Virus record (IMG/VR): IMGVR_UViG_3300023184_000035
Coordinates: 64,001 to 128,000 of that record
Reading direction: 5' to 3' (one strand)
Origin: a virus
DNA: 64,000 nt
Below the pieces are notes generated by a model that worked only from the letters and a program-made list of their open reading frames with translations, had not been told where the DNA came from and searched no databases. How positions within the stretch are numbered: the first letter of the stretch is position 1; every line of letters starts with the position of its first letter. Positions 2,352 to 56,824 of the stretch are shown in pieces. The translations under genes were made by a program, and so were the position numbers.

Positions 2352-2945
2352 GTGCCAAATTTAGTACCCATAGTTTTAGAACACACTGCCAAAGGTGAAC
2401 GCAGTTATGACATTTACAGTCGCCTGCTCAAAGATCGTGTGATCATGCTGGACACAGAAGTTTCAGAGCACTCAGCCAGTTTGATTGTGGCACAACTGCT
2501 GTTTTTGGAAGCAGACAATCCTGACAAGGACATTTCGCTGTATATCAACTCACCGGGCGGAAGTGTCACAGCAGGCATGGCCATTTACGACACCATGCAG
2601 TTTATCAAGTGCGATGTACATACCATTGTGATGGGGCAGGCCTGTAGCATGGGATCTCTGTTGGCACAAGCAGGTGCACCAGGCAAGCGTTACATGTTGC
2701 CCAATGCCAGACACATGATTCACCAACCGTCAGGCGGCGCACGTGGGCAAGCAACAGACATGTTGATTCAAGTGGAGGAAATTTTGTCCATGAAGAAAAA
2801 TTTAACAGGTATATATGTTAAACACAATTCAGCCAACAAAACCTTTGAACAACTCACAGCAGACATGGAACGTGACAACTTCATGAGTGCAGAACAAGCA
2901 GTTGCATACGGATTAGCTGACAAAGTTATAGAAAACCGTAAATGA
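2352..2945 (+). CDS. clpP: ATP-dependent Clp protease proteolytic subunit
   Basis: [47 protein letters not shown]; GTG at 2352 after AAGGAG. Confidence 0.95.
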
Positions 2946-4222
2946 CCTTAAAAACTAATTTTTGCTCAAGTCCCTGGATTCACATGAGAATCACAAACTC
3001 GGGCAATTATGAGTTTTGTCGTTGGTCTGATGAGCATACCAATATCAACATACGTGAGCACACCCCACTAGAGTTTTTTCAAACGCACATGGCACCTGTT
3101 CGCAGTGCCATGTTGCAAGGTGAGCAGGTGCCTGCTTGCAAAGACTGCCGCCACATGGAGCAACGCCACAAGGTAAGTGGCCGTCAGCGGCAGTTGTTGA
3201 AAACTGGTATTGCTTTGGACAATTTTGAAAAGTCCATGCGCAGTAGCACATACTGGTCAGCATTTGCACAATCCAACTTTACCTCTGGCACAACTGATCT
3301 CAGTCCTGTGGATTGGCAAATTGATCTAGGCAACCATTGCAACAGTGGGTGCGTGTATTGTGCCCCAGAAAGTAGCAGTAGGCTCTCACAAGAATTTAAA
3401 AAATTAAAAATCTCACAGGCAGAACCAGCACCAAATTGGGCAACTGATCCAGAGTTGATAGATCAATTTGTTGCCTGTTTGACCAATACCAATCGACTGG
3501 CATACCTGCATTTTCTCGGCGGCGAAACCGTAATCACTCCAGCATTCAAGATCATACTAGAAAAACTCATTGCTGCCAAACTCAATCACAAAGTCAGCAT
3601 TGGGTTTACCACCAACTTGACTGTGTGGGACCAGGGCATTGTTGACTTGTTGACACAATTTGATCAAGTGCATCTGGGCATGAGTATTGAATGTTTTCAT
3701 GCTGTAAATGACTACGTGCGCTGGCCCAGCTCGATCAAATCAGTTGAGACCATGTTGTTGCAATGGATTGCATTGGGGCAACAGCACCGCTGGTACATGT
3801 CTTTGAGAACCACACCCACAGCACTGACCATACCTTACTTGATCACAGTGTATGATTTTGCACATCGGTACAATGTTGGGATTGAAAGTTGTAATTTTTT
3901 ACACAATCCAAAATTTCTTAGAATGAGTGTATTGCCCATGCAGTATCGGCAGGTGATTGCTGATCGAATACAAGCCTGGGTTGATCAACAAAATGTTTTT
4001 TCTACCACGCAATTAACCAATTTAAGAGACCCCAATCAACTGCATTTGCAAATCACACAAGATGCCATGAGTTATGTTGATTATTTGCGTACTGCCCCGG
4101 ATGAAACACATCTGCTGCCCGAATTGGTGGCATACTTGAAATTGCTTGAGTCCTCAAGATCCAACAGCATACTTGATTGTGAGCCCGAATATGAACACAT
4201 TCTCAGATCTGCAGGCTACTGA
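2942..4222 (+). CDS. Radical SAM protein with N-terminal twitch/SPASM-like Cys cluster
   Basis: CNSGCVYC motif, FLGGE; N-terminal CSSPW...C...CKDC. Confidence 0.85.
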
Positions 4223-12743: not shown

Positions 12744-12942
12744 TTGTGGTTCTCAACAGGCCTTGGCCTACAAGCATCAGTTGGATATTGACGGACTCAT
12801 AGTCAACCAAGACTATACCTGGCGATATCAAAAACCTGTGTACGATGAGTTTGCCTGGACTGATTCGGAAGTCAGCAATGTCACATTCACATTCCGAAAT
12901 CCCATGTTGGCCACATTCTATCAGTTAAAGTGGTGTCGGTAA
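12715..12942 (+). CDS. Small LRW-family protein
   Basis: TFTFRNPMLATFYQLKW. Confidence 0.6.
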   Translation: METVDYVRLNCGSQQALAYKHQLDIDGLIVNQDYTWRYQKPVYDEFAWTDSEVSNVTFTFRNPMLATFYQLKWCR

Positions 12943-12949
12943 ATATCCC

Positions 12950-23295: not shown

Positions 23296-23784
23296 ATGGC
23301 AATCACAACTGATCAAATTCCCACCATAACCATAGATGAACTAAGCGATCATCTCGATCATCTAACCAGTGGCGTCAGCACCGACACCATAACCTGGGGC
23401 AACAGCTCAATCTGGAGCACAACCGGAACAGTGGTACCGGGCTATGGTGCTGCTATTGGTGGTCAAAATGCTTACACCTACGCAACCAATACCACTAGCC
23501 CTTGGATTAGCGTTAGCAATGGTGGCACTGGGTCAATCAACCCCAGTGCCAGCATAGAAATCAAAGGCGAAGACGCTGACATCAAGATCAATGGCAAAAG
23601 CATGGTGACCTGGATGGAGGCGGTAGAAGAACGACTTAACATACTCACACCCAATCCTGAACTGGAAAAAGACTGGGATGACTTGCGCAGACTGGGGCAA
23701 CGCTACAGAGCCTTGGAAAAGAAATGCAAGGAAAAAGCACAGATGTGGGCGGCCTTGAAAAAAGTACAACCTCGACAACCATGA
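23296..23784 (+). CDS. Hypothetical protein
   Basis: IKGEDADIKING...EERLNIL.PNPELE. Confidence 0.7.
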   Translation: MAITTDQIPTITIDELSDHLDHLTSGVSTDTITWGNSSIWSTTGTVVPGYGAAIGGQNAYTYATNTTSPWISVSNGGTGSINPSASIEIKGEDADIKINGKSMVTWMEAVEERLNILTPNPELEKDWDDLRRLGQRYRALEKKCKEKAQMWAALKKVQPRQP

Positions 23785-25166
23785 GCACATGGGCAGAGTT
23801 TTACAATCAAATCCGAGATCCTGCATGGCCTGACTGCAAACAAGAACATCAGTTCTCACAACTACCCGAACATATTCAAAAAGAATGCTGTGAAGTATTT
23901 GGGTATGTTCCGGGTGCATTTAAAAAACAATCCAAGCTGCCCAATCGGGTGTTTCCAATCAACACAGCAACAGCTTGTCAGTTAAAATGGAACTGGAGCA
24001 CAATATATCTTACCACAGAAGACACAGCCAGTTGTCATAGAACCACTCATCATAAATTTGACACTGACACGTTTGATTTTCACAACACGCCTAGTAAATT
24101 GCAAGACCGGCGGCACATGTTGGCGGGCAAATGGCCCGAACATGGTTGCGAATACTGTCGTGATATAGAGCAGGCAGGTGGACAAAGCGATCGTATTACC
24201 AATTTGGACTTCCCAGGTATACATGCGCCTCCTGAGCTAGATCAAGATCCTGTGGCGGTTGATGTTACTCCTCGTATACTAGAAGTATATTTCGACAACA
24301 CTTGCAATTTAAAATGCCTGTACTGTGGTCCTCACTTTAGCAGTCTGTGGGACGCTGAAAACATTCGACATGGCGCTGGGGCATTTGCCAAGAGTGCCAA
24401 TATTGAAAGCAACAAACAAAAGATATTTTCTTGGTTGAGGCAACATGGGCACAACCTTACAGTGTTCAATATTTTAGGTGGCGAGCCACTGTATCAAGAC
24501 GAACTTGATCAATGCTTGGATTTATTTGAGCAGCATCCTGCACCCGAACTTAAATTACAAATATTTACAAATCTCAATGCCAAGTTGAGTCGTGTAAAAA
24601 ATTTAGTTGAACGTGTTAAACAATTGATTGATCAGAACAAACTGAGAGAATTTGAAATAACTGCCAGTTTGGATTGCTGGGGTACACCGCAAGAATATGT
24701 GCGATACCCATTGGATCTCTCTGTATGGGAAAAGAACTTTGAATACTTGGTAGACCAACCTTGGATAAATTTAATTATTAACTCCACAGTGACACCACTC
24801 ACTGTAAAAACTCTACCTGATTTACTGCAAAGAATAAATCAGTGGAGTACAACTAGAAAAATATATCACTATCAAAATTCTGTCAACGGCCCCAGTTACA
24901 TGTTTATTGACATATTTGGCGGAATTTTTCAAAATGATTTTGATCAAGCCCTGGCCATCAAGCCAACTAATACTCCAGAAGAACAATCTAGTACTCAGTA
25001 CTTGAAAGGCATTGCACAACAAAGTTTGCATCGTGGCCCCAACGTGCCTGAAATAAAAAAACTTTTTAATTTTTTAAACGAAAATGATCGTCGACGTAAT
25101 ACCAGCTGGTCCACGGTGTTTCCTTGGCTGGTTGAAGAATTTGTCAAATATGATCTAAAAATTTGA
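23781..25166 (+). CDS. Radical SAM protein with an extra N-terminal module
   Basis: CNLKCLYC, LGGEP; twitch-like CQLKW..SCHRT..CEYC. Confidence 0.88.
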   Translation: MSTWAEFYNQIRDPAWPDCKQEHQFSQLPEHIQKECCEVFGYVPGAFKKQSKLPNRVFPINTATACQLKWNWSTIYLTTEDTASCHRTTHHKFDTDTFDFHNTPSKLQDRRHMLAGKWPEHGCEYCRDIEQAGGQSDRITNLDFPGIHAPPELDQDPVAVDVTPRILEVYFDNTCNLKCLYCGPHFSSLWDAENIRHGAGAFAKSANIESNKQKIFSWLRQHGHNLTVFNILGGEPLYQDELDQCLDLFEQHPAPELKLQIFTNLNAKLSRVKNLVERVKQLIDQNKLREFEITASLDCWGTPQEYVRYPLDLSVWEKNFEYLVDQPWINLIINSTVTPLTVKTLPDLLQRINQWSTTRKIYHYQNSVNGPSYMFIDIFGGIFQNDFDQALAIKPTNTPEEQSSTQYLKGIAQQSLHRGPNVPEIKKLFNFLNENDRRRNTSWSTVFPWLVEEFVKYDLKI

Positions 25167-25197
25167 CACACAATACAAATCATTATATAATGCTATT

Positions 25198-26010
25198 ATG
25201 ATACCCAAAACACCTAAACAACGCATCAAACACATCGTCAAGTGGATCCAAGACTATGCTCGCAAAGCAAAGATTAATACCTTGGTGGTGGGTATTTCAG
25301 GCGGCATTGACAGCTCAGTTGTGAGTGCCTTGTGTGCTCGAACTGGCTTGAAAACCATTGTGGTACAAATGCCCATTCGCCAGAATAAGAAACTGGACAA
25401 CTTGAGTTCAGCACACGCAGGCTGGCTGTTGAATCATGTGCCCAGCTTCAGCATCACGCACATGATCATGGATTTGACCCCAGTGTTCACAGCATTTGAG
25501 AAAAAGCTCACACCTTTTGGCGACAGTGAACTGGCATTTGCCAACAGCAGAGCCCGACTGCGCATGATGACCCTGTATCAAATTGCACAGAGTCATGGTG
25601 GCATTGTGGTGGGCACAGGCAACAAAGTGGAAGATTTTGGCGTGGGATTCTTTACCAAGTACGGTGACGGTGGAGTGGATATCTCTCCCATTGGTGACTG
25701 TTTGAAAACTGAAGTCTGGGACATGGGACGAGAACTTGGCTTGCTCCAGGAGATCATCGATGCCCCGCCCACCGACGGACTCTGGGCCGATGACCGTAAC
25801 GACGAAGATCAACTGGGCATGAACTACCCTGAACTGGAACGCATGATGAGCATTGACTTTTTGAAGCGAGCCAAGATCGTGGATTCAGACATGCCTGGCA
25901 GCGCCAAACTCAATGCTGACGATCGAAAAAAATTAAAACGTTATCAAGAACTACGTGCTCAGAACATGCACAAGATGATGTCTATCCCTGTTTGTACAAT
26001 GCCCCGTTAA
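25198..26010 (+). CDS. nadE: NH3-dependent NAD+ synthetase
   Basis: GISGGIDS, NSRARLRM, GTGNKVE, FFTKYGDGG, PTDGLW; promoter TTGACA(25163)-17-TATAAT, apparently leaderless. Confidence 0.93.
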   Translation: MIPKTPKQRIKHIVKWIQDYARKAKINTLVVGISGGIDSSVVSALCARTGLKTIVVQMPIRQNKKLDNLSSAHAGWLLNHVPSFSITHMIMDLTPVFTAFEKKLTPFGDSELAFANSRARLRMMTLYQIAQSHGGIVVGTGNKVEDFGVGFFTKYGDGGVDISPIGDCLKTEVWDMGRELGLLQEIIDAPPTDGLWADDRNDEDQLGMNYPELERMMSIDFLKRAKIVDSDMPGSAKLNADDRKKLKRYQELRAQNMHKMMSIPVCTMPR

Positions 26011-26084
26011 CTACAATGTTAATGGCAAAAACACACCATTTTGACAGTTTTTTGACAGCCTTACAGCTAGATCAAATAAGTAAA

Positions 26085-26395
26085 AGTGGTGGTAGAACAA
26101 CACATTGCAATCTAATAGGATCTTCTACTGCTGATTGGTATCTTGTCCAATTGAATAAAACAAGTACCCGTGACACCAAAAGAGGTTTGTCCAAGCCAAA
26201 TTGGTGTTCGAAAGAGACTCTCGGAAAGTCTCTTCGTTGACAACTAGAATTGGACAGGCTCATTTCTCAGGACGCGAGCTTGTCCCAAACGAGTATGCCA
26301 AGGAGGCCCGAGGTCTATCTATGCTCATCTCAACTGCACTTTTGTCAACGTGATCTACTCGGGACTCCGCGTATAGCCACGTATTGGCAAGAAAA
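26085..26395 (+). ncRNA. Putative large structured RNA / leader of the hydrolase gene
   Basis: At least six hairpins plus a 9-bp long-range complement cgttgacaa/ttgtcaacg. Confidence 0.65.
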
Positions 26396-26404
26396 GGAAA
26401 TCAA

Positions 26405-26980
26405 ATGAAAGTTAATACAAATCGGCCCAATGCATTGGCATCGTGGTCATCTCGAGTTATCAAACTACTGGGACTGTTTTTGGTCATGCTGGTGGTTTGG
26501 AATGTGTGCCAAAGCAGATTGGCCTCACTACGAAGCGACCGGGCAGCCGGCATGGTGGGCTATGTGTCAGCAGAAGACAAATTACGACAATTGGATTGCC
26601 TAACCCGCAACATCTACTGGGAAGCAGCCTCAGAGCCGTTTGAGGGCAAAGTGGCAGTGGCGCAGGTCACGTTAAATAGAGTAGAGAGCGGCAGATTTGC
26701 CAACACTGTGTGCGGTGTGGTCTATCAAAAGAACGTGTTCTATGAAAAGGTAGTTTGCCAATTCTCGTGGTTCTGCGAAGGCAATCACAAGGTCCGAGCA
26801 GTGTATCAGCCCATGTGGCAAGAAAGCGAACTAGTGGCCAAAAAAGTACTATTGGAGAACTTCCGATTGCCCGGCATGAAAAATGCGTTATACTATCATG
26901 CTGACTATGTAAATCCCAACTGGCACAAAGCCCGAATTGACAAAATTGGTCGTCACATCTTTTATGGAGAAAAATCATGA
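26405..26980 (+). CDS. Cell wall hydrolase, SleB/Hydrolase_2 family
   Basis: CLTRNIYWEA..EPFEGKVAVAQVTLNRV, CQFSW, YYHADYV.P.W, IGRHIFY; N-terminal TM. Confidence 0.92.
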   Translation: MKVNTNRPNALASWSSRVIKLLGLFLVMLVVWNVCQSRLASLRSDRAAGMVGYVSAEDKLRQLDCLTRNIYWEAASEPFEGKVAVAQVTLNRVESGRFANTVCGVVYQKNVFYEKVVCQFSWFCEGNHKVRAVYQPMWQESELVAKKVLLENFRLPGMKNALYYHADYVNPNWHKARIDKIGRHIFYGEKS

Positions 26981-27288
26981 ACGCCTGGCCCTTTAACTTA
27001 CAAATTGTTCGAGACTTTTTGAACAATCACCTGCACAAAATTTCAGCAGACACCCTGGGCTGGTTGGCAGCCATTGTGTTGCACTGTGCCACAATTCCTT
27101 CACTGCTGGCCTTGATGACTGGACTGAGTGATCGAGTGCCCAGCCTGGATGTGGTGGCGTTTCTTTGGGCAGGCCTAGTACTGCTGTTCCTGCGAGCCAT
27201 TGTGCTCAAAGATACCCTGAACATCATCACAATTGGTCTGGGGTTTATAGTGCAAGCCGGGCTCATGGCCCTGATCCTGTTTAGGTAA
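26977..27288 (+). CDS. Three-TM membrane protein (PQ-loop/SemiSWEET-like, or holin candidate)
   Basis: LGWLAAIVLHCATIPS, three hydrophobic helices, coupled to the hydrolase. Confidence 0.55.
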   Translation: MNAWPFNLQIVRDFLNNHLHKISADTLGWLAAIVLHCATIPSLLALMTGLSDRVPSLDVVAFLWAGLVLLFLRAIVLKDTLNIITIGLGFIVQAGLMALILFR

Positions 27289-27301: not shown

Positions 27302-27330
27302 TTGACCAATAATTGCAATCCTGCTATAAT
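27302..27330 (+). promoter_or_regulatory. Early sigma70-type promoter
   Basis: TTGACC-17-TATAAT. Confidence 0.85.
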
Positions 27331-27361: not shown

Positions 27362-27754
27362 ATGACCATGCATCTTGAAGGCCCATGGCTCAGCATGAGC
27401 GGCAAAAAGCGCGGCAAAGTAAAGTTTCGCAACGCTGAAGAAGCCCGACGTGCTAGAGAACTTGATGAGTCATGGCGAGAACTGCTGAAACGTCAAGGCG
27501 TGGAAGCAGAGCAAAAGCGTCAGACTCGTGCTATGACAGCACCCCCACTAGATTACAAGCTGACCACACCCGTGGGTCGTACCAACACACATCACATTCC
27601 CAGCCGTGACACAGGTGGCAACGCCACACTGGCCGCACCCAAAGTTTACACAGGTACCAAGGTCAAGGGCATTGCTACCATGCACAAGTCAAATGCTGTG
27701 CCGGTGTTCTCGGACGAGGAGGCAGTAGAAATTTCAAGGATGCGCCGTGGCTAA
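27362..27754 (+). CDS. Hypothetical phage protein
   Basis: YTGTKVKGIATMHKSNAVPVF C-terminus. Confidence 0.75.
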   Translation: MTMHLEGPWLSMSGKKRGKVKFRNAEEARRARELDESWRELLKRQGVEAEQKRQTRAMTAPPLDYKLTTPVGRTNTHHIPSRDTGGNATLAAPKVYTGTKVKGIATMHKSNAVPVFSDEEAVEISRMRRG

Positions 27755-36570: not shown

Positions 36571-36642
36571 TGATCACTCCAATTCCCAGTATTTAGCGGT
36601 GCGCAGAGTTTTGGTAAATACCATACTGGGACGAATCAAAAC

Positions 36643-39021: not shown

Positions 39022-39560
39022 TGAGTGGCATAATGACTGCCGTGGCAGGCAGCAGCAGTGATGCCATACTATATACAGCTGGCTTGTACGGGCCGTTTGG
39101 TGCCGATCCATTGCCCATCACTGGCAGTAGCACCAGTGCAGGTGGCAGCACAGTAACCATCAACCGTACCTGGATAGGCTATTTGCGTCCAGCGTCAACT
39201 GGCACCAATACCTTGACCATACAGTCCTTGTGGGATCAATACGTAATATATCTTGGCGGCACGTATGCATTTAATTGGGGAGGCAGTCCCAGCAGTATTT
39301 CCTATATTTGGGTTGGTGCCCTTGCCGAATCAGGTTATACTGTATTCAATGCCAATGCTGCATCAAGCAACAACACTGTTACCTATAGTCCCAGTCTCAC
39401 TGCCGGCAGAAATTATCCTGTGAGGTATCAATGGGCCGCCACGTTGCCATATAGTGCCTTTGCATACGCTGGTGCGTATCCAGGATACACCACAGGCAGT
39501 TGCAGTTTCAGTGCAAGCAACGGAACAGCCTACTACAATGCCTTGACCAATGGCTTCTAA
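39021..39560 (+). CDS. Putative fibre-tip / PA14-like protein
   Basis: WIGYLRP..TG, SYIWVG, LTAGRNYPVR. Confidence 0.55.
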   Translation: MSGIMTAVAGSSSDAILYTAGLYGPFGADPLPITGSSTSAGGSTVTINRTWIGYLRPASTGTNTLTIQSLWDQYVIYLGGTYAFNWGGSPSSISYIWVGALAESGYTVFNANAASSNNTVTYSPSLTAGRNYPVRYQWAATLPYSAFAYAGAYPGYTTGSCSFSASNGTAYYNALTNGF

Positions 39561-39595
39561 CACTACAATAAATATGTCAAAGGCACAATAAACAC

Positions 39596-42500: not shown

Positions 42501-43213
42501 ACGGCAACTACAATAGTGTAGATGATGCCTGGCAGCAATATACCACAACATATGACGCAGTGGGATTTAGTCCTGAAGTAGCAGGTGAAAATTTTGACGA
42601 GAGCTACACAATTTCTGGCGGGCAAACAGTACAGTGTACTGTTACCACAGCTGCCACTGATCGAATCACCTGTACCAGCACCACCGGCATGGTAGCAGGA
42701 GATACCATATGGTTTACTAGCACTACATTTGGTGATGTCACTGCCTTCAACAACAACAACCAAATCTACTACATCTACGACGTGCCCAACAGCACTCAGT
42801 TTAGAATTGCAGAAACAGTGGATGCAACATCACCATTGGCTCTCAGTAATGACTCTGGTGACATGACTGCCAACTGGGGCGATTATAGAATGGGCATTTG
42901 GGAAGTCAGCATTGGCGGTGTGGACAACAACATTGTCACACTGTCACTGTTGCAACAAACTGCACCCAATGATTATCTAAGAGTCACTCAAGGTGAAACT
43001 TACAACACTGCCCAGTTGTATAGACCCACCACACCAGGACCTGCACTGACCTTGATCAATTGGCAACCATTGATCACTGCTGTGACAGTAATTGGCAATG
43101 AAACCACATTCGACCAGGCCAGCATGCAGTTTATTGCGCCTGTTGATATGTACGATACCAGCGATGCGCTGGATAAATATCTCGTATTCCCCAAGAGCGA
43201 TATTTTGGTGTAA
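39596..43213 (+). CDS. Large virion structural protein with putative Ig-like domains
   Basis: WITPAGNLG, repeated LPPGL.L...G.I.G units. Confidence 0.75.
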
Positions 43214-43225
43214 CAAGGACAACAC

Positions 43226-50906: not shown

Positions 50907-51073
50907 GTGTGATTCTCCTAAGCCCTGTAGGGCCAGGTATTTACGGTCAAAGATTTGACAATAACTGAGTGGTATTTTCAAATAGTTGGTCACTAAATAC
51001 TGACCTGGCTGCATAAAAGTGTCACGACTCAAGACTGTTGTGTGCTCTCAACAACTTTGGTAAATAATGCATT

Positions 51074-54157: not shown

Positions 54158-56806
54158 ATGTCAAATACAATTTTATTAAAAAAATCAAGTACAGCCAACA
54201 GCGTACCATTAGCAGCTAATCTTGCATTGGGTGAAGTTGCCCTTAACTACACTGATGGTAATTTGTTCTACAAAGACGGCGGCGGCACAGTCAATCTCCT
54301 GGTCAGCAACAAATTTGTATCTGTTACAGGCAACATCACTGGTGGTAATTTGGTCACGTCAGGTGTGGCCAATGTGGGCAGTTTGAGCACTGCTGGCAAC
54401 ATCACAGGTGGCAACGTCAACGGTGGGGCAAATGTTTTTGCTACCACACATACAGGTACCACAGTTTCAGTAACAGGCAACATTACTGGTGGCAATTTAA
54501 TCACATCAGCAGCCATTAGTGCCGCTTCAGTCAGTGCAAGTGCAAATATCACCGGTGGCAACTTGAATGCTGCTGGATTGAGTTTGTCAAGCAACGTGGT
54601 CAGCGCATTAAACTTGAGTTCAAGCCTGACGGCGGCCACTACAATTTCAGCTGTGGGCAACATCACTGGTGGCAATTTGAATGCCGCTGGCCTGAGTTTA
54701 TCAAGCAATGTGATCAGTGCATTGAATGTTACTGCCAACATTGCTGGTGGCAACATCACAACACCTGGATTGATCAGTGCCACTGGTGACATCTCTGGCG
54801 CAAATATTACCACAGCAGGCCCCAATGCCACAATTGGTTCTTCAACAGCCAATGCCACTTACAACATTGGTACAGGTGCAACCACCACAGGTCTGCTGAA
54901 AAACATCAACATTGGCACCGGTGGTCTTGCCAACTCTACCACCACTGTTGCTGTTGGTCCCACACTGGGCAATGCCACTGTAACAACTTCTGCCAACACC
55001 ACAGTGGCCATTGCCAACACTTCTGGTTTGGCACTGAGTGTGGCTGGTAATGTAACTGCCAATTACTTTATCGGTAATGGGTCACAGTTAACCGGACTAA
55101 CGCCCAACAAGATTTTTAACGGTACCAGTGAAGCCAACATTGGAACTTCAAGTGGTAATGCCAATATTTCAATTGGTGGCACAAGCAATGTGGCTGTGTT
55201 TACCACGGCAGGGTTGAATGTCACCGGCATTGTTAGTGCATCGGGTAACATCACTGGCGGTAACCTAAATGCCAGTGGCTTGAGCCTAAGCGGCAATGTG
55301 GTGTCACCACTCAACGCCTCATCAAGTATTGCAGCCGGCACCACTGTTAGTGCTGTGGGTAACATCACTGGTGGCAACATCATTACAGGTGCAGCCGTAA
55401 GTGCTGCCTCAGTCAGCGCCAGTGGCAATGTCACTGGTGGTAATTTGGTCACAGCGGCTGCTGTAAGTGCTGCCTCAGTCAGTGCTTCGGGCAACATCAC
55501 TGGCGGTAACCTAAATGCTGCTGGACTGAGCCTGAGTTCAAACGTAGTATCAGCACTGAATTTAAGTTCAAGTTTGACGGCTGCAACAACCATCAGTGCT
55601 GTGGGCAATATTACTGGTGGTAACTTAAATGCTACCGGATTGAGTCTCAGTGGTAATGTTGTTTCAGCAATCAATTCAACTTCTGCTATCACAACCACTG
55701 CCAACATCACTGGTGGCAACATTGTCACAGGTGCGGCGGTCAGTGCTGCTTCAGTCAGTGCCAGTGGCAACATCACTGGTGGCAATGTCAACACCAATGT
55801 GTTGTCAGGCACCGGGACCACAATCAAATCTTCAGGTGCATTGAATCTCAGTGCTACCGGAAACATTGTGGTCAACAGCCAATACATCAATGGTTTATTA
55901 GATCCTATACAAAATCAAGACGCAGCCACCAAAGGCTATGTTGACAGTGTGGCGCAAGGTCTTGATCCCAAAGCATCAGTGGTATACGCCACAGCCGCAG
56001 CCCTAAGTGCATACACTTACAACAATGGCTCATCAGGTGTTGGCGCAACCATTACAGCCAACAGCAACGGCGCACTCAGCATCGATGGATCAACTCCCAG
56101 TGCCGGCGAACGTGTGTTGGTTAAAAATGAAACATCAACCAACCAACCCTACAACGGTATCTATGTTGTAACACAGGTTGGTAGCGGTAGTTTGCCGTTT
56201 ATATTGACCAGATCAACTGACTTTGATACCGGCACAGAAGTTCCAAGTTCGTTTGTGTTTGTTGAATTTGGCAGTACCCAAGCCGACACTGGTTGGGTGT
56301 GTACCACAAATTCACCAGTCACCATTGGTACTACCAACATTGTATTCACACAGTTCTCTGGTGCAGGTACATATACTGCCAATACCGCAGCTGGCCTGGT
56401 ACTAAACGGTTCGGTATTTTCTGCAAAAACTGACAACACAACCACTGCATTTGACGGTTCAGGCAACATCATTGTCAAAGCCAGTGCGCAGTTGACCACA
56501 CCCAACATTGGTGCCGCTACTGGTACCAGCTTGAGCGTAACAGGCAACATCACCGGTGGTAACCTAAATGCCACTGGATTGAGTTTGAGTGGCAACGTTG
56601 TTAGTCCGATCAACACAACGTCTACAATCATTACCACTGCCAACATCACAGGTGGCAACATAATTTCTGTAGCAGCATTCAGCGGTGTTAGTGTCAGTGC
56701 CAGCGGCAACGTAACTGGCGCCAACATAAACGGTACCACTGGAGTTTATTCAAGTGGTGTACAGGTCTTAACTATCAATGATACTGTAGATGGTGGCACC
56801 TACTAA
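54158..56806 (+). CDS. Long fibre protein with GNITGGN repeats
   Basis: GEVALNYTDG; DAATKGYVD; RVLVKNE...NGIY; ends DGGTY. Confidence 0.75.
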   Translation: MSNTILLKKSSTANSVPLAANLALGEVALNYTDGNLFYKDGGGTVNLLVSNKFVSVTGNITGGNLVTSGVANVGSLSTAGNITGGNVNGGANVFATTHTGTTVSVTGNITGGNLITSAAISAASVSASANITGGNLNAAGLSLSSNVVSALNLSSSLTAATTISAVGNITGGNLNAAGLSLSSNVISALNVTANIAGGNITTPGLISATGDISGANITTAGPNATIGSSTANATYNIGTGATTTGLLKNINIGTGGLANSTTTVAVGPTLGNATVTTSANTTVAIANTSGLALSVAGNVTANYFIGNGSQLTGLTPNKIFNGTSEANIGTSSGNANISIGGTSNVAVFTTAGLNVTGIVSASGNITGGNLNASGLSLSGNVVSPLNASSSIAAGTTVSAVGNITGGNIITGAAVSAASVSASGNVTGGNLVTAAAVSAASVSASGNITGGNLNAAGLSLSSNVVSALNLSSSLTAATTISAVGNITGGNLNATGLSLSGNVVSAINSTSAITTTANITGGNIVTGAAVSAASVSASGNITGGNVNTNVLSGTGTTIKSSGALNLSATGNIVVNSQYINGLLDPIQNQDAATKGYVDSVAQGLDPKASVVYATAAALSAYTYNNGSSGVGATITANSNGALSIDGSTPSAGERVLVKNETSTNQPYNGIYVVTQVGSGSLPFILTRSTDFDTGTEVPSSFVFVEFGSTQADTGWVCTTNSPVTIGTTNIVFTQFSGAGTYTANTAAGLVLNGSVFSAKTDNTTTAFDGSGNIIVKASAQLTTPNIGAATGTSLSVTGNITGGNLNATGLSLSGNVVSPINTTSTIITTANITGGNIISVAAFSGVSVSASGNVTGANINGTTGVYSSGVQVLTINDTVDGGTY

Positions 56807-56824
56807 AATAAGTAGTAGAGCACC

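Follow-up and report, generated by a model that had tools for sequence, protein, structure and literature searches.

A pseudoknotted leader RNA upstream of the endolysin gene of freshwater jumbo phages

Positions 26088-26404 of the window, by which we mean the whole 64,000-nucleotide (nt) stretch of IMG/VR virus record IMGVR_UViG_3300023184_000035 analyzed here (positions 64,001 to 128,000 of that record), are a conserved, non-coding and highly structured RNA on the plus strand. It lies in a 394-nt gap (26011-26404) that separates a nadE-like NAD synthase gene (25198-26010) from the ATG (26405) of a cell-wall hydrolase gene, between a late-promoter-like box and the Shine-Dalgarno (SD) sequence and ATG of the hydrolase. 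The original prediction, made from the letters of the window, had placed a structured, pseudoknotted RNA of about 320 nt ahead of the hydrolase, and covariation among homologs establishes that this RNA is genuine, and its G-U pairs place it on the plus strand. We consider it likely that the RNA is the 5' leader of a late endolysin mRNA, a compact two-domain element that controls the initiation of hydrolase translation. The source record is 148 kb long with an estimated completeness of 42%, from which the phage is judged to be a jumbo phage.

Covariation and coding potential

A search with the hydrolase protein retrieved 80 viral loci, 18 of which share the whole upstream block of about 370 nt by iterative nhmmer, and in the closest relatives this block is 88-94% identical to the window at the nucleotide level. 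Scanning IMG/VR with the most conserved word of the RNA gave 58 contigs and a second word gave 7 more, while metagenomic contigs provided at least 120 matches, the figures for these referring to the matches listed. The core consensus was annotated by hand on an alignment of 49 sequences, and the covariance model built from it was used to realign 54, then 61 and then 100 distinct sequences. Over the 100 sequences 90.7% of cells in the core pair, compared with 28-42% when the pairing partners are displaced by 1-3 columns (the slid control), compensatory changes occur at 23 of 40 pairs (581 cells), and none of 500 shuffles reaches any of five measures, in an alignment that is fitted to the model, which favors structure. 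The 5' domain was assessed on a plain MAFFT alignment of 44 sequences (A3) that is not structure-fitted, and there 91.2% of cells pair compared with 24-45% in the slid control, with 16 of 20 pairs compensatory. Covariation among homologous leaders was the check that the original prediction had called for, and it comes out in favor of the RNA. RNAalifold applied to the raw MAFFT alignment recovered only three helices because the variable stems were misaligned, and it was superseded by the hand annotation and covariance-model realignment.

The RNA strand can be read from the G-U pairs, which are frequent and in some places invariant (H4 and H6, described below), and which on the minus strand would be C-A mismatches. 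What could speak for a short coding gene, the remains of a decayed gene or a fortuitous fold is that the single-sequence fold is only modestly better than that of shuffles (z = -2.3) and that several relatives have stop-to-stop open frames of about 110 codons. We regard such an origin as hardly credible: three-frame translations show that the conserved nucleotide blocks shift frame and contain stops among divergent homologs, the substitutions in helices are compensatory and follow no codon pattern, and the nucleotides are more conserved than the neighboring protein, as in relative L005, where the RNA region is 94% identical and the hydrolase is 77% identical in amino acids.

Architecture of the core and the 5' domain

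The RNA consists of a variable 5' domain (26088-26207) and a 3' domain (26205-26404). The 5' domain is absent in three lineages (L096, L119 and L084), which identifies the 3' domain of about 190 nt as the functional core. The core opens with hairpin H1 (26212-26234), in which AAGAGAC (26212-26218) pairs with GTCTCTT (26228-26234) beneath the loop TCTCGGAAA, which holds a near-invariant TCGGAA with CGGA at 26222-26225. All 100 sequences have the same AGAG/CUCU pairs, and above these two pairs covary (GC/AU/GU and AU/CG/GU/UA/UG), so that the aagagact/agtctctt pairing noticed at the outset is H1. The loop motif TCGGAA is invariant in the 54 sequences of alignment A2 and reads TCGGCA in one subgroup found via another motif, and its invariance is partly built in, because the sequences of A2 and A5 were mostly collected with a pattern that contains TCGGAA. 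Directly after H1 comes the long-range helix H2 (26235-26350), formed by CGTTGACAA (26235-26243) and TTGTCAACG (26342-26350), which closes a multiloop containing H3, H4 and a variable stretch. In H2 93.8% of cells pair over the 100 sequences; pair 32/183 is AU in 56, GC in 21 and GU in 20 of them, and L154 has one U-A to A-U swap. This helix is the cgttgacaa/ttgtcaacg complementarity that had been taken for a pseudoknot with a loop: the helix itself is real, with A-U, G-C and G-U at one pair, but it is a nested long-range helix and no pseudoknot, because the long closing helix is missing outside the window's clade. An internal sigma-70 promoter at the invariant TTGACA of H2 was considered and rejected, as no conserved -10 element lies 17 nt downstream.

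Within the multiloop, hairpin H3 (26252-26285) pairs GGACAGGCTC (26252-26261) with GAGCTTGTCC (26276-26285) around a loop (26262-26275) that includes GGACG. All 9 of its pairs are compensatory, as illustrated by GGACAGGGTC/GACCTTGTCC in L006, and the pairing ggacaggctc/gagcttgtcc proposed earlier is thus recovered as H3. The conserved junction GAGTATGCCAAGG then leads into hairpin H4 (26291-26316 for the two together), composed of AGGCC (26304-26308), CGA and GGTCT (26312-26316). H4 is nearly invariant, so covariation says little there; its G-U pair is retained in 97 of 100 sequences and is replaced by A-U in L011. Other homologs have a further hairpin, H5 (GCCCA-UCC-UGGGC), that is compensatory at all 5 pairs and that the window's clade lacks. 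In its place this clade has an alternative helix (26302-26368) of GGAG (26302-26305) and CCCGAG (26307-26312) with CTCGGG (26358-26363) and CTCC (26365-26368), which would compete with H4 and shows no informative variation in the clade. The long closing helix initially proposed, tgccaa-ggag-cccgag with ctcggg-ctcc-ttggca, does not hold for the family, since it occurs only in the window's own clade of 8-12 members, and even there its CTCC and TTGGCA parts vary without compensation; other homologs use the same segments for H4, H5 and the H6/H7 pseudoknot.

The core ends beside the SD in an H-type pseudoknot (26369-26388) made of H6 and H7. H7 pairs (A)GCC (26375-26378) with GGC (26386-26388) and is compensatory at all 5 pairs in the 100 sequences, and the 4-bp H6 joins the strand 5' of H7, GCGT (26369-26372), to the H7 loop, ACGT (26379-26382). 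H6 pairs in register in 46 of 54 sequences, with 15 C-G to G-C swaps, and the remaining 8 are the window's clade, whose pairing (GCGU/ACGU) is offset by one column. When register is disregarded, 92 of the 100 sequences have a complementary downstream 4-mer at the H7 loop, in nine combinations that include GCUG/CAGU, GGUG/CACU, GCGU/ACGU and GCCG/CGGU; a fifth H6 pair, A199-U205, was unsupported. In all homologs the pseudoknot ends 1-6 nt before the SD with a fixed spacing, and no conserved helix takes in the SD. Immediately 5' of H6, TCCG (26366-26369) is complementary to the CGGA of the H1 loop, and with the preceding C it supplies CUCC, an anti-SD-like word. In this proposed tertiary helix 97.9% of cells pair, with three pairs nearly invariant and the fourth A-U in 51 sequences and C-G in 4, the latter from one lineage found via a different motif; on such evidence the contact is plausible, with moderate to weak support.

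The 5' domain contains a hairpin P1, a second H-type pseudoknot and a hairpin P3. P1 (26090-26130) pairs TGGTAGAA (26090-26097) with TTCTACTG (26123-26130), as foreseen in the ggtagaa/ttctact pairing, and in A3 all 7 pairs are compensatory and 97.9% of cells pair; an additional hairpin, P1a, sits inside P1 in most relatives but not in the window's clade. The 5' pseudoknot (26134-26166) has a stem 1 of ATTGG (26134-26138) and CCAAT (26147-26151), a stem 2 of TATCTTGT (26139-26146) and ACAAGTA (26160-26166), and an A-rich loop 3, TGAATAAA (26152-26159). Compensatory pairs in A3 number 3 of 4 in stem 1 and 5 of 5 in stem 2, and relatives retain the topology despite changed sequence, as in one combination of ACGG/CCGU, GGCCAG/CUGGUC and a CAAAG loop. 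The suggested pairing ggta.cttgt/acaagtacc survives as stem 2, although its gg belongs more likely to stem 1. P3 (26173-26207), the former acaccaa/ttggtgt, pairs ACACCAA (26173-26179) with TTGGTGT (26201-26207); it is limited to some lineages, including that of the window, in whose clade the stem covaries (CACTG/CAGTG in L005 and L006). The conserved P3 loop, TTTGTCCAAG (26186-26195), has TGTCC at 26188-26192, and we propose that it kisses GGACG (26270-26274) in the H3 loop. P3 with its loop UUUGUCCAA and GGAC(A/G) in the H3 loop co-occur perfectly, both being present in 19 unique sequences and neither in 30, and double changes that preserve the pairing in L076 (CGUCC/GGACG) and L055 (UUCUA/UAGAA) point to a kissing loop.

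Although every complementary segment of the original prediction is found where it had been seen, its mutually exclusive pairing of ttgtccaatt (26143) with aattggacag (26248) is clade-specific and not conserved, the TTGTCC/GGACA words being explained by the H3 stem, the pseudoknot strands and the kissing pair. New relative to it are the two H-type pseudoknots, of which the 3' one stops 5-6 nt short of the SD, the kissing loop and the probable tertiary helix between the H1 loop and the UCCG strand. A pairing between the 5' and 3' parts, CAGCGGAGG/CCUCCGCUG, is attractive in some relatives and was dropped as a core feature because neither the window's clade nor the homologs that lack the 5' domain have its 5' partner. 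A divergent subgroup of the RNA (L151, L153 and L155-L157) has a different 5' domain and a plain hairpin instead of the H6/H7 pseudoknot.

Genomic context, inheritance and transcription

The gene behind the RNA (26405-26980, plus strand) encodes a Hydrolase_2, or SleB-type, endolysin that matches Pfam PF07486 (1.5e-25) and PHROG 938 'endolysin' (2.5e-20) and has a hydrophobic N-terminal anchor, by which the product is probably attached to the membrane. The suggested tie to the cell-wall hydrolase is borne out in every informative contig: the RNA lies directly upstream of a Hydrolase_2 gene in 154 of 154, namely 57 of 57 viral and 97 of 97 metagenomic contigs with enough flank among the matches listed, two sets that partly overlap. 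The hydrolases include a second type that has a cleavable signal peptide and 32-35% identity to the window's enzyme. In L092 (4877-6139) and L110 (5520-6761) two tandem Hydrolase_2 genes follow the RNA, the signal-peptide hydrolase directly and the membrane-anchored hydrolase after it. Searched with the covariance model, the window's record and five related records (225-337 kb) contain exactly one copy of the RNA each; the complete genome among the five, of 337 kb, has the RNA at no second locus.

The RNA was found in well over 100 uncultivated phage contigs, from freshwater jumbo phages. By blastn the region had no counterpart among 50,697 phage records, which means that the RNA is absent from cultured relatives, and a full-text literature search returned no description of it. 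A scan of bacterial genomes gave three motif matches in metagenome-assembled genomes of unrelated phyla, of which one, on a 2.4-kb contig, fits the model; these give no clue to the host. Two RNA runs labeled 'marine metagenome' (X17 and X18) hold about one quarter of the sampled words from window positions 26000-26700, and since the element is otherwise freshwater, the marine label may reflect either habitat or labeling.

On a tree of 102 hydrolases, presence of the RNA requires 2 changes, compared with 34 when the labels are shuffled, which indicates that the RNA is inherited with the gene and was lost in one or two clades. A mobile insert between promoter and gene, the first impression given by its patchiness, is rejected by the same count, and the RNA-less form looks like a loss. 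About 32 other loci share with the window just the first ~70 nt of the upstream region, and this block (26018-26087 in the window), a small GTTAATGGCAAAAAC..CCATTTT hairpin followed by the CTAAGTA box, is kept with and without the RNA. At the RNA-less loci GAGTAAGTAAAACTACC abuts the ATG and no SD is present, an arrangement that suggests a nearly leaderless late hydrolase mRNA. A third kind of hydrolase leader occurs in an RNA-less clade (L014, L017 and L038, at about 2870-3000), where a consensus sigma-70 promoter is followed by overlapping alternative hairpins, CCCCTGAGAAAAA.../TTTTTCTCAG/CTGAGGGG, in an attenuator-like arrangement.

The RNA starts right after the late-promoter-like box AATAAGTA (26075-26082, plus strand), and the original prediction had likewise placed it after TAAGTA (26077); the box reads CTAAGTA in most relatives, and a set of 44 homologs has CTAAGTA without exception at the 5' edge of the RNA. 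From its position and invariance, the hydrolase transcript probably starts at about 26088 (26087-26089), some 6 nt after AATAAGTA, where P1 begins. In the window, TAAATA/TAAGTA boxes stand 5-40 nt before the starts of several structural genes that lack an SD (12930-12949, 36610-36642, 39560-39595, 43185-43225, 51055-51073 and 56800-56824), which we take to be the pattern of T4-type late promoters. Early-type genes use perfect sigma-70 promoters (TTGACA-17-TATAAT) instead, at 25163-25191 before nadE and at 27302-27330 before the open reading frame (ORF) at 27362. The subgroup of L151, L153 and L155-L157 also has a consensus sigma-70 promoter, about 90 nt ahead of the CTAAGTA box, and early and late transcripts may thus both include the RNA there. 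Contigs from four metatranscriptome studies cover the leader, and in one run a 398-nt contig spans 26026-26421 and is deeper than the coding-region contigs. As such contigs are blind to starts, ends, strand and level, and DNA carry-over is possible, they were not used for transcription boundaries.

Downstream, a 103-amino acid ORF (26977-27288, plus strand) overlaps the hydrolase stop codon and encodes a putative multi-pass membrane protein for which no Pfam or PHROG family was matched. It directly follows the hydrolase in 79 of 80 related loci, at 65-95% identity, the sole exception (L065) having almost no downstream flank. It is better conserved (90-95% in the window's clade) than the hydrolase (77-88%), and it may be a holin or pinholin that partners the hydrolase. 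Neighbors other than these two genes are not conserved, and upstream of the RNA relatives carry nadE, a radical SAM gene or orf187. In the window, the radical SAM and nadE genes (23724-26010) form a variable cassette between orf187 and the hydrolase that is present, absent or swapped in related phages; these genes look like auxiliary metabolic 'moron' genes. No transfer RNA or transfer-messenger RNA genes were found.

Proposed translational control and comparison with known systems

Adjacency to the gene, the spacing to the SD, TTG starts and the lack of a terminator together suggest a cis-acting translational control element, which most likely governs the timing or the amount of lysis-enzyme synthesis. 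The SD and start codon occupy 26394-26407 (AAGGAAA, with the ATG at 26405), and the SD is AAGGAGAA in most relatives. Among 54 sequences the start codon is TTG in 31, ATG in 22 and GTG in 1. No terminator-like site was found in the leader and no terminator or promoter between RNA and gene, and the 3' end of the element stands a fixed short distance from the SD. CUCC precedes H6 in 32 of the 54 sequences, and in RNAfold ensembles the GGAG of the SD pairs with CUCC, its probability of being unpaired falling below 0.3 in about half of 49 homologs.

In the mechanism we propose, transcription would start about 6 nt after AATAAGTA, so that the RNA begins at P1. In an ON state, (C)UCCG located 5' of H6 would dock on the H1-loop CGGA and H6 and H7 would form, leaving the SD free at the edge of a rigid platform and permitting translation. 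In an OFF state, the fold would be unlocked and CUCC would pair with the SD GGAG, so that translation would be blocked, while in the window's clade CUCC would join the GGAGgCCCGAG/CUCGGGaCUCC helix instead. A hypothetical trans factor, either a small ligand or a phage or host RNA-binding protein reporting late infection, would select the state and hence the timing or amount of endolysin. As to which, the conserved junctions and tertiary contacts would favor an aptamer-like fold, and the invariant helix sequence would favor recognition by a protein.

Were the effector a metabolite or an ion, the ~190-nt core would be the aptamer of a riboswitch, whose ligand-locked fold, including H6/H7, frees or hides the SD and ties synthesis of the lysis enzyme to a small-molecule signal of late infection or of the state of the cell wall. 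The leader does have a covarying, aptamer-like structure in what its promoter-like motif marks as a 5' untranslated region; the covarying helices surround highly conserved junction and loop nucleotides, a constant core is combined with a variable periphery, the pseudoknot abuts the SD, and the pseudoknotted ydaO riboswitch, which senses c-di-AMP before cell-wall hydrolase genes, provides a precedent. We nonetheless lean against this possibility, as no Rfam riboswitch matches even at E<=10, a length of ~190-320 nt exceeds most aptamers, and the neighborhood genes give no hint of a ligand, the upstream nadE not being conserved. A bolder version, in which the core represents a novel class of riboswitch aptamer, or else a novel ribozyme, found only in uncultivated freshwater jumbo phages and timing the exported endolysin by a small-molecule signal, is doubtful; if true, it would amount to an RNA-based lysis clock alongside the holin. 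The invariant helix sequence in H1, H2 and H4 is more typical of protein or tertiary recognition, and a protein-binding operator is possible to the same tentative degree as the riboswitch: a protein recognizing the invariant H1/H2/H4 face would entrap the 30S subunit at the pseudoknot platform or prevent it from entering, as S15 does on rpsO and as in the gp32 leader. The invariant paired AGAG...CUCUUCRUUGACAA and the near-invariant loop UCGGAA (UCGGCA in one subgroup) suggest sequence-specific recognition, and the H-type pseudoknot directly 5' of the SD and the common weak TTG starts would fit; however, neighbors other than the hydrolase and the 103-amino acid protein are not conserved, and two pseudoknots plus a kissing loop exceed the architecture of known protein operators.

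It is also conceivable, if unlikely, that the RNA is a constitutive mRNA stabilizer or translation enhancer, a rigid 5' structure that protects the late mRNA and presents the SD without switching. Predictions leave the SD open in the window and several relatives, the covariation supports one fold only, and RNA-less relatives have the late box against the ATG and no SD, so that the RNA arrives together with an SD. For such a task, however, a simple 5' hairpin would suffice, and the many invariant unpaired nucleotides and tertiary contacts imply something more specific. Rather improbable is a stand-alone non-coding RNA (a ribozyme, a decoy or anti-defense RNA, or a processed small RNA) that merely shares the hydrolase promoter. 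Its size and ornateness recall orphan large RNAs, and the deep 398-nt metatranscriptome contig could be read the same way, though weakly, since contigs show neither ends nor levels; yet the RNA stands strictly and exclusively beside Hydrolase_2 genes of two types, keeps a fixed SD spacing without a terminator of its own, is co-inherited with the gene, and has no other locus in the complete 337-kb genome.

Several observations weigh against a leader that switches translation, which we still prefer. The transcript start is placed from a promoter-like motif, and the on/off switch is a model in which covariation backs the pseudoknotted state only. The CUCC:GGAG pairing has no covariation behind it, both words being conserved for other reasons. 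In the window the SD AAGGAA is predicted to be 88% unpaired, and sequestration may therefore not operate in the window's clade. The sequence conservation of the lower H1 stem and H2 would also fit a protein site or a non-translational role. About half of the related phages lack the RNA, which is thus dispensable for making the enzyme, and three lineages lack the 5' domain. In addition, most homologs were collected via a motif inside the RNA, which biases the collection.

Phage fitness depends centrally on when lysis occurs, a matter usually attributed to holins and promoters; if a large, conserved RNA with tertiary structure is wired to the ribosome-binding site (RBS) of the exported endolysin, jumbo phages would have a further layer of lysis control, made of RNA. 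The family, which numbers over 100 distinct sequences and combines two pseudoknots and a kissing loop with a modular periphery, is suited to structural study and to the identification of a ligand or protein. An unannotated gap of about 400 nt in viral contigs turns out to hold a functional element, and the covariance model can label such gaps.

The Rfam comparison suggested with the original prediction gave no family. None of the 4227 models of Rfam 15 reached its gathering threshold in the whole 64-kb window, and at E<=10 the region 25900-26500 gave a single chance match on the minus strand, to the TUG1_2 long non-coding RNA (15 bits against a threshold of 90). The c-di-AMP riboswitch (ydaO-yuaA, RF00379) is a large pseudoknotted leader before bacterial cell-wall hydrolase and remodeling genes and is similar to the phage leader in both respects, but the latter is in a phage context, lacks the pseudo-two-fold symmetry and internal duplication of ydaO-yuaA, has a different helix order, and has a 3' H-type pseudoknot at the SD. 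The RF00379 covariance model gave no match at E<=10, and the lack of an Rfam match excludes ydaO/c-di-AMP. Early transcripts of T4 gene e have their RBS concealed in a small hairpin, and late transcription starts inside that hairpin from a TATAAATA-type promoter, so that both systems tie translation of a phage lysis enzyme to mRNA structure and to a late promoter of the TATAAATA type. In the phage leader, however, the late-type box lies ~320 nt upstream and the whole RNA would be in the late transcript, occlusion of the RBS as in gene e is not seen, the SD being in no conserved helix, and the structure is, as had been said of it, far more elaborate than the gene e hairpin.

In the rpsO/S15 and T4 gene 32 leaders an H-type pseudoknot at or near the SD controls whether the 30S subunit gains access or is entrapped, and the H6/H7 pseudoknot likewise adjoins the SD, with both stems covarying. 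Those operators are ~40-80 nt long and bind the protein encoded downstream, whereas the phage pseudoknot forms one module in a fold of 190-320 nt. The lysM, NLPC-P60 and Peptidase-S11 Rfam motifs are orphan structured RNAs upstream of cell-wall enzymes, and GOLLD and ROOL are large, ornate, stand-alone RNAs of 500-800 nt from lakes and phages. All of these are, like the RNA described here, structured RNAs recognized by comparative genomics, some beside peptidoglycan enzymes and some phage-borne or from lake water, although GOLLD and ROOL are not SD-adjacent leaders. By analogy, the leader may work most like the RBS pseudoknot operators of rpsO and T4 gene 32 and may follow the biological logic of T4 gene e, while being a member of neither group; it represents a real, uncatalogued, ornate leader RNA family of jumbo-phage endolysin genes whose function is probably translational control.

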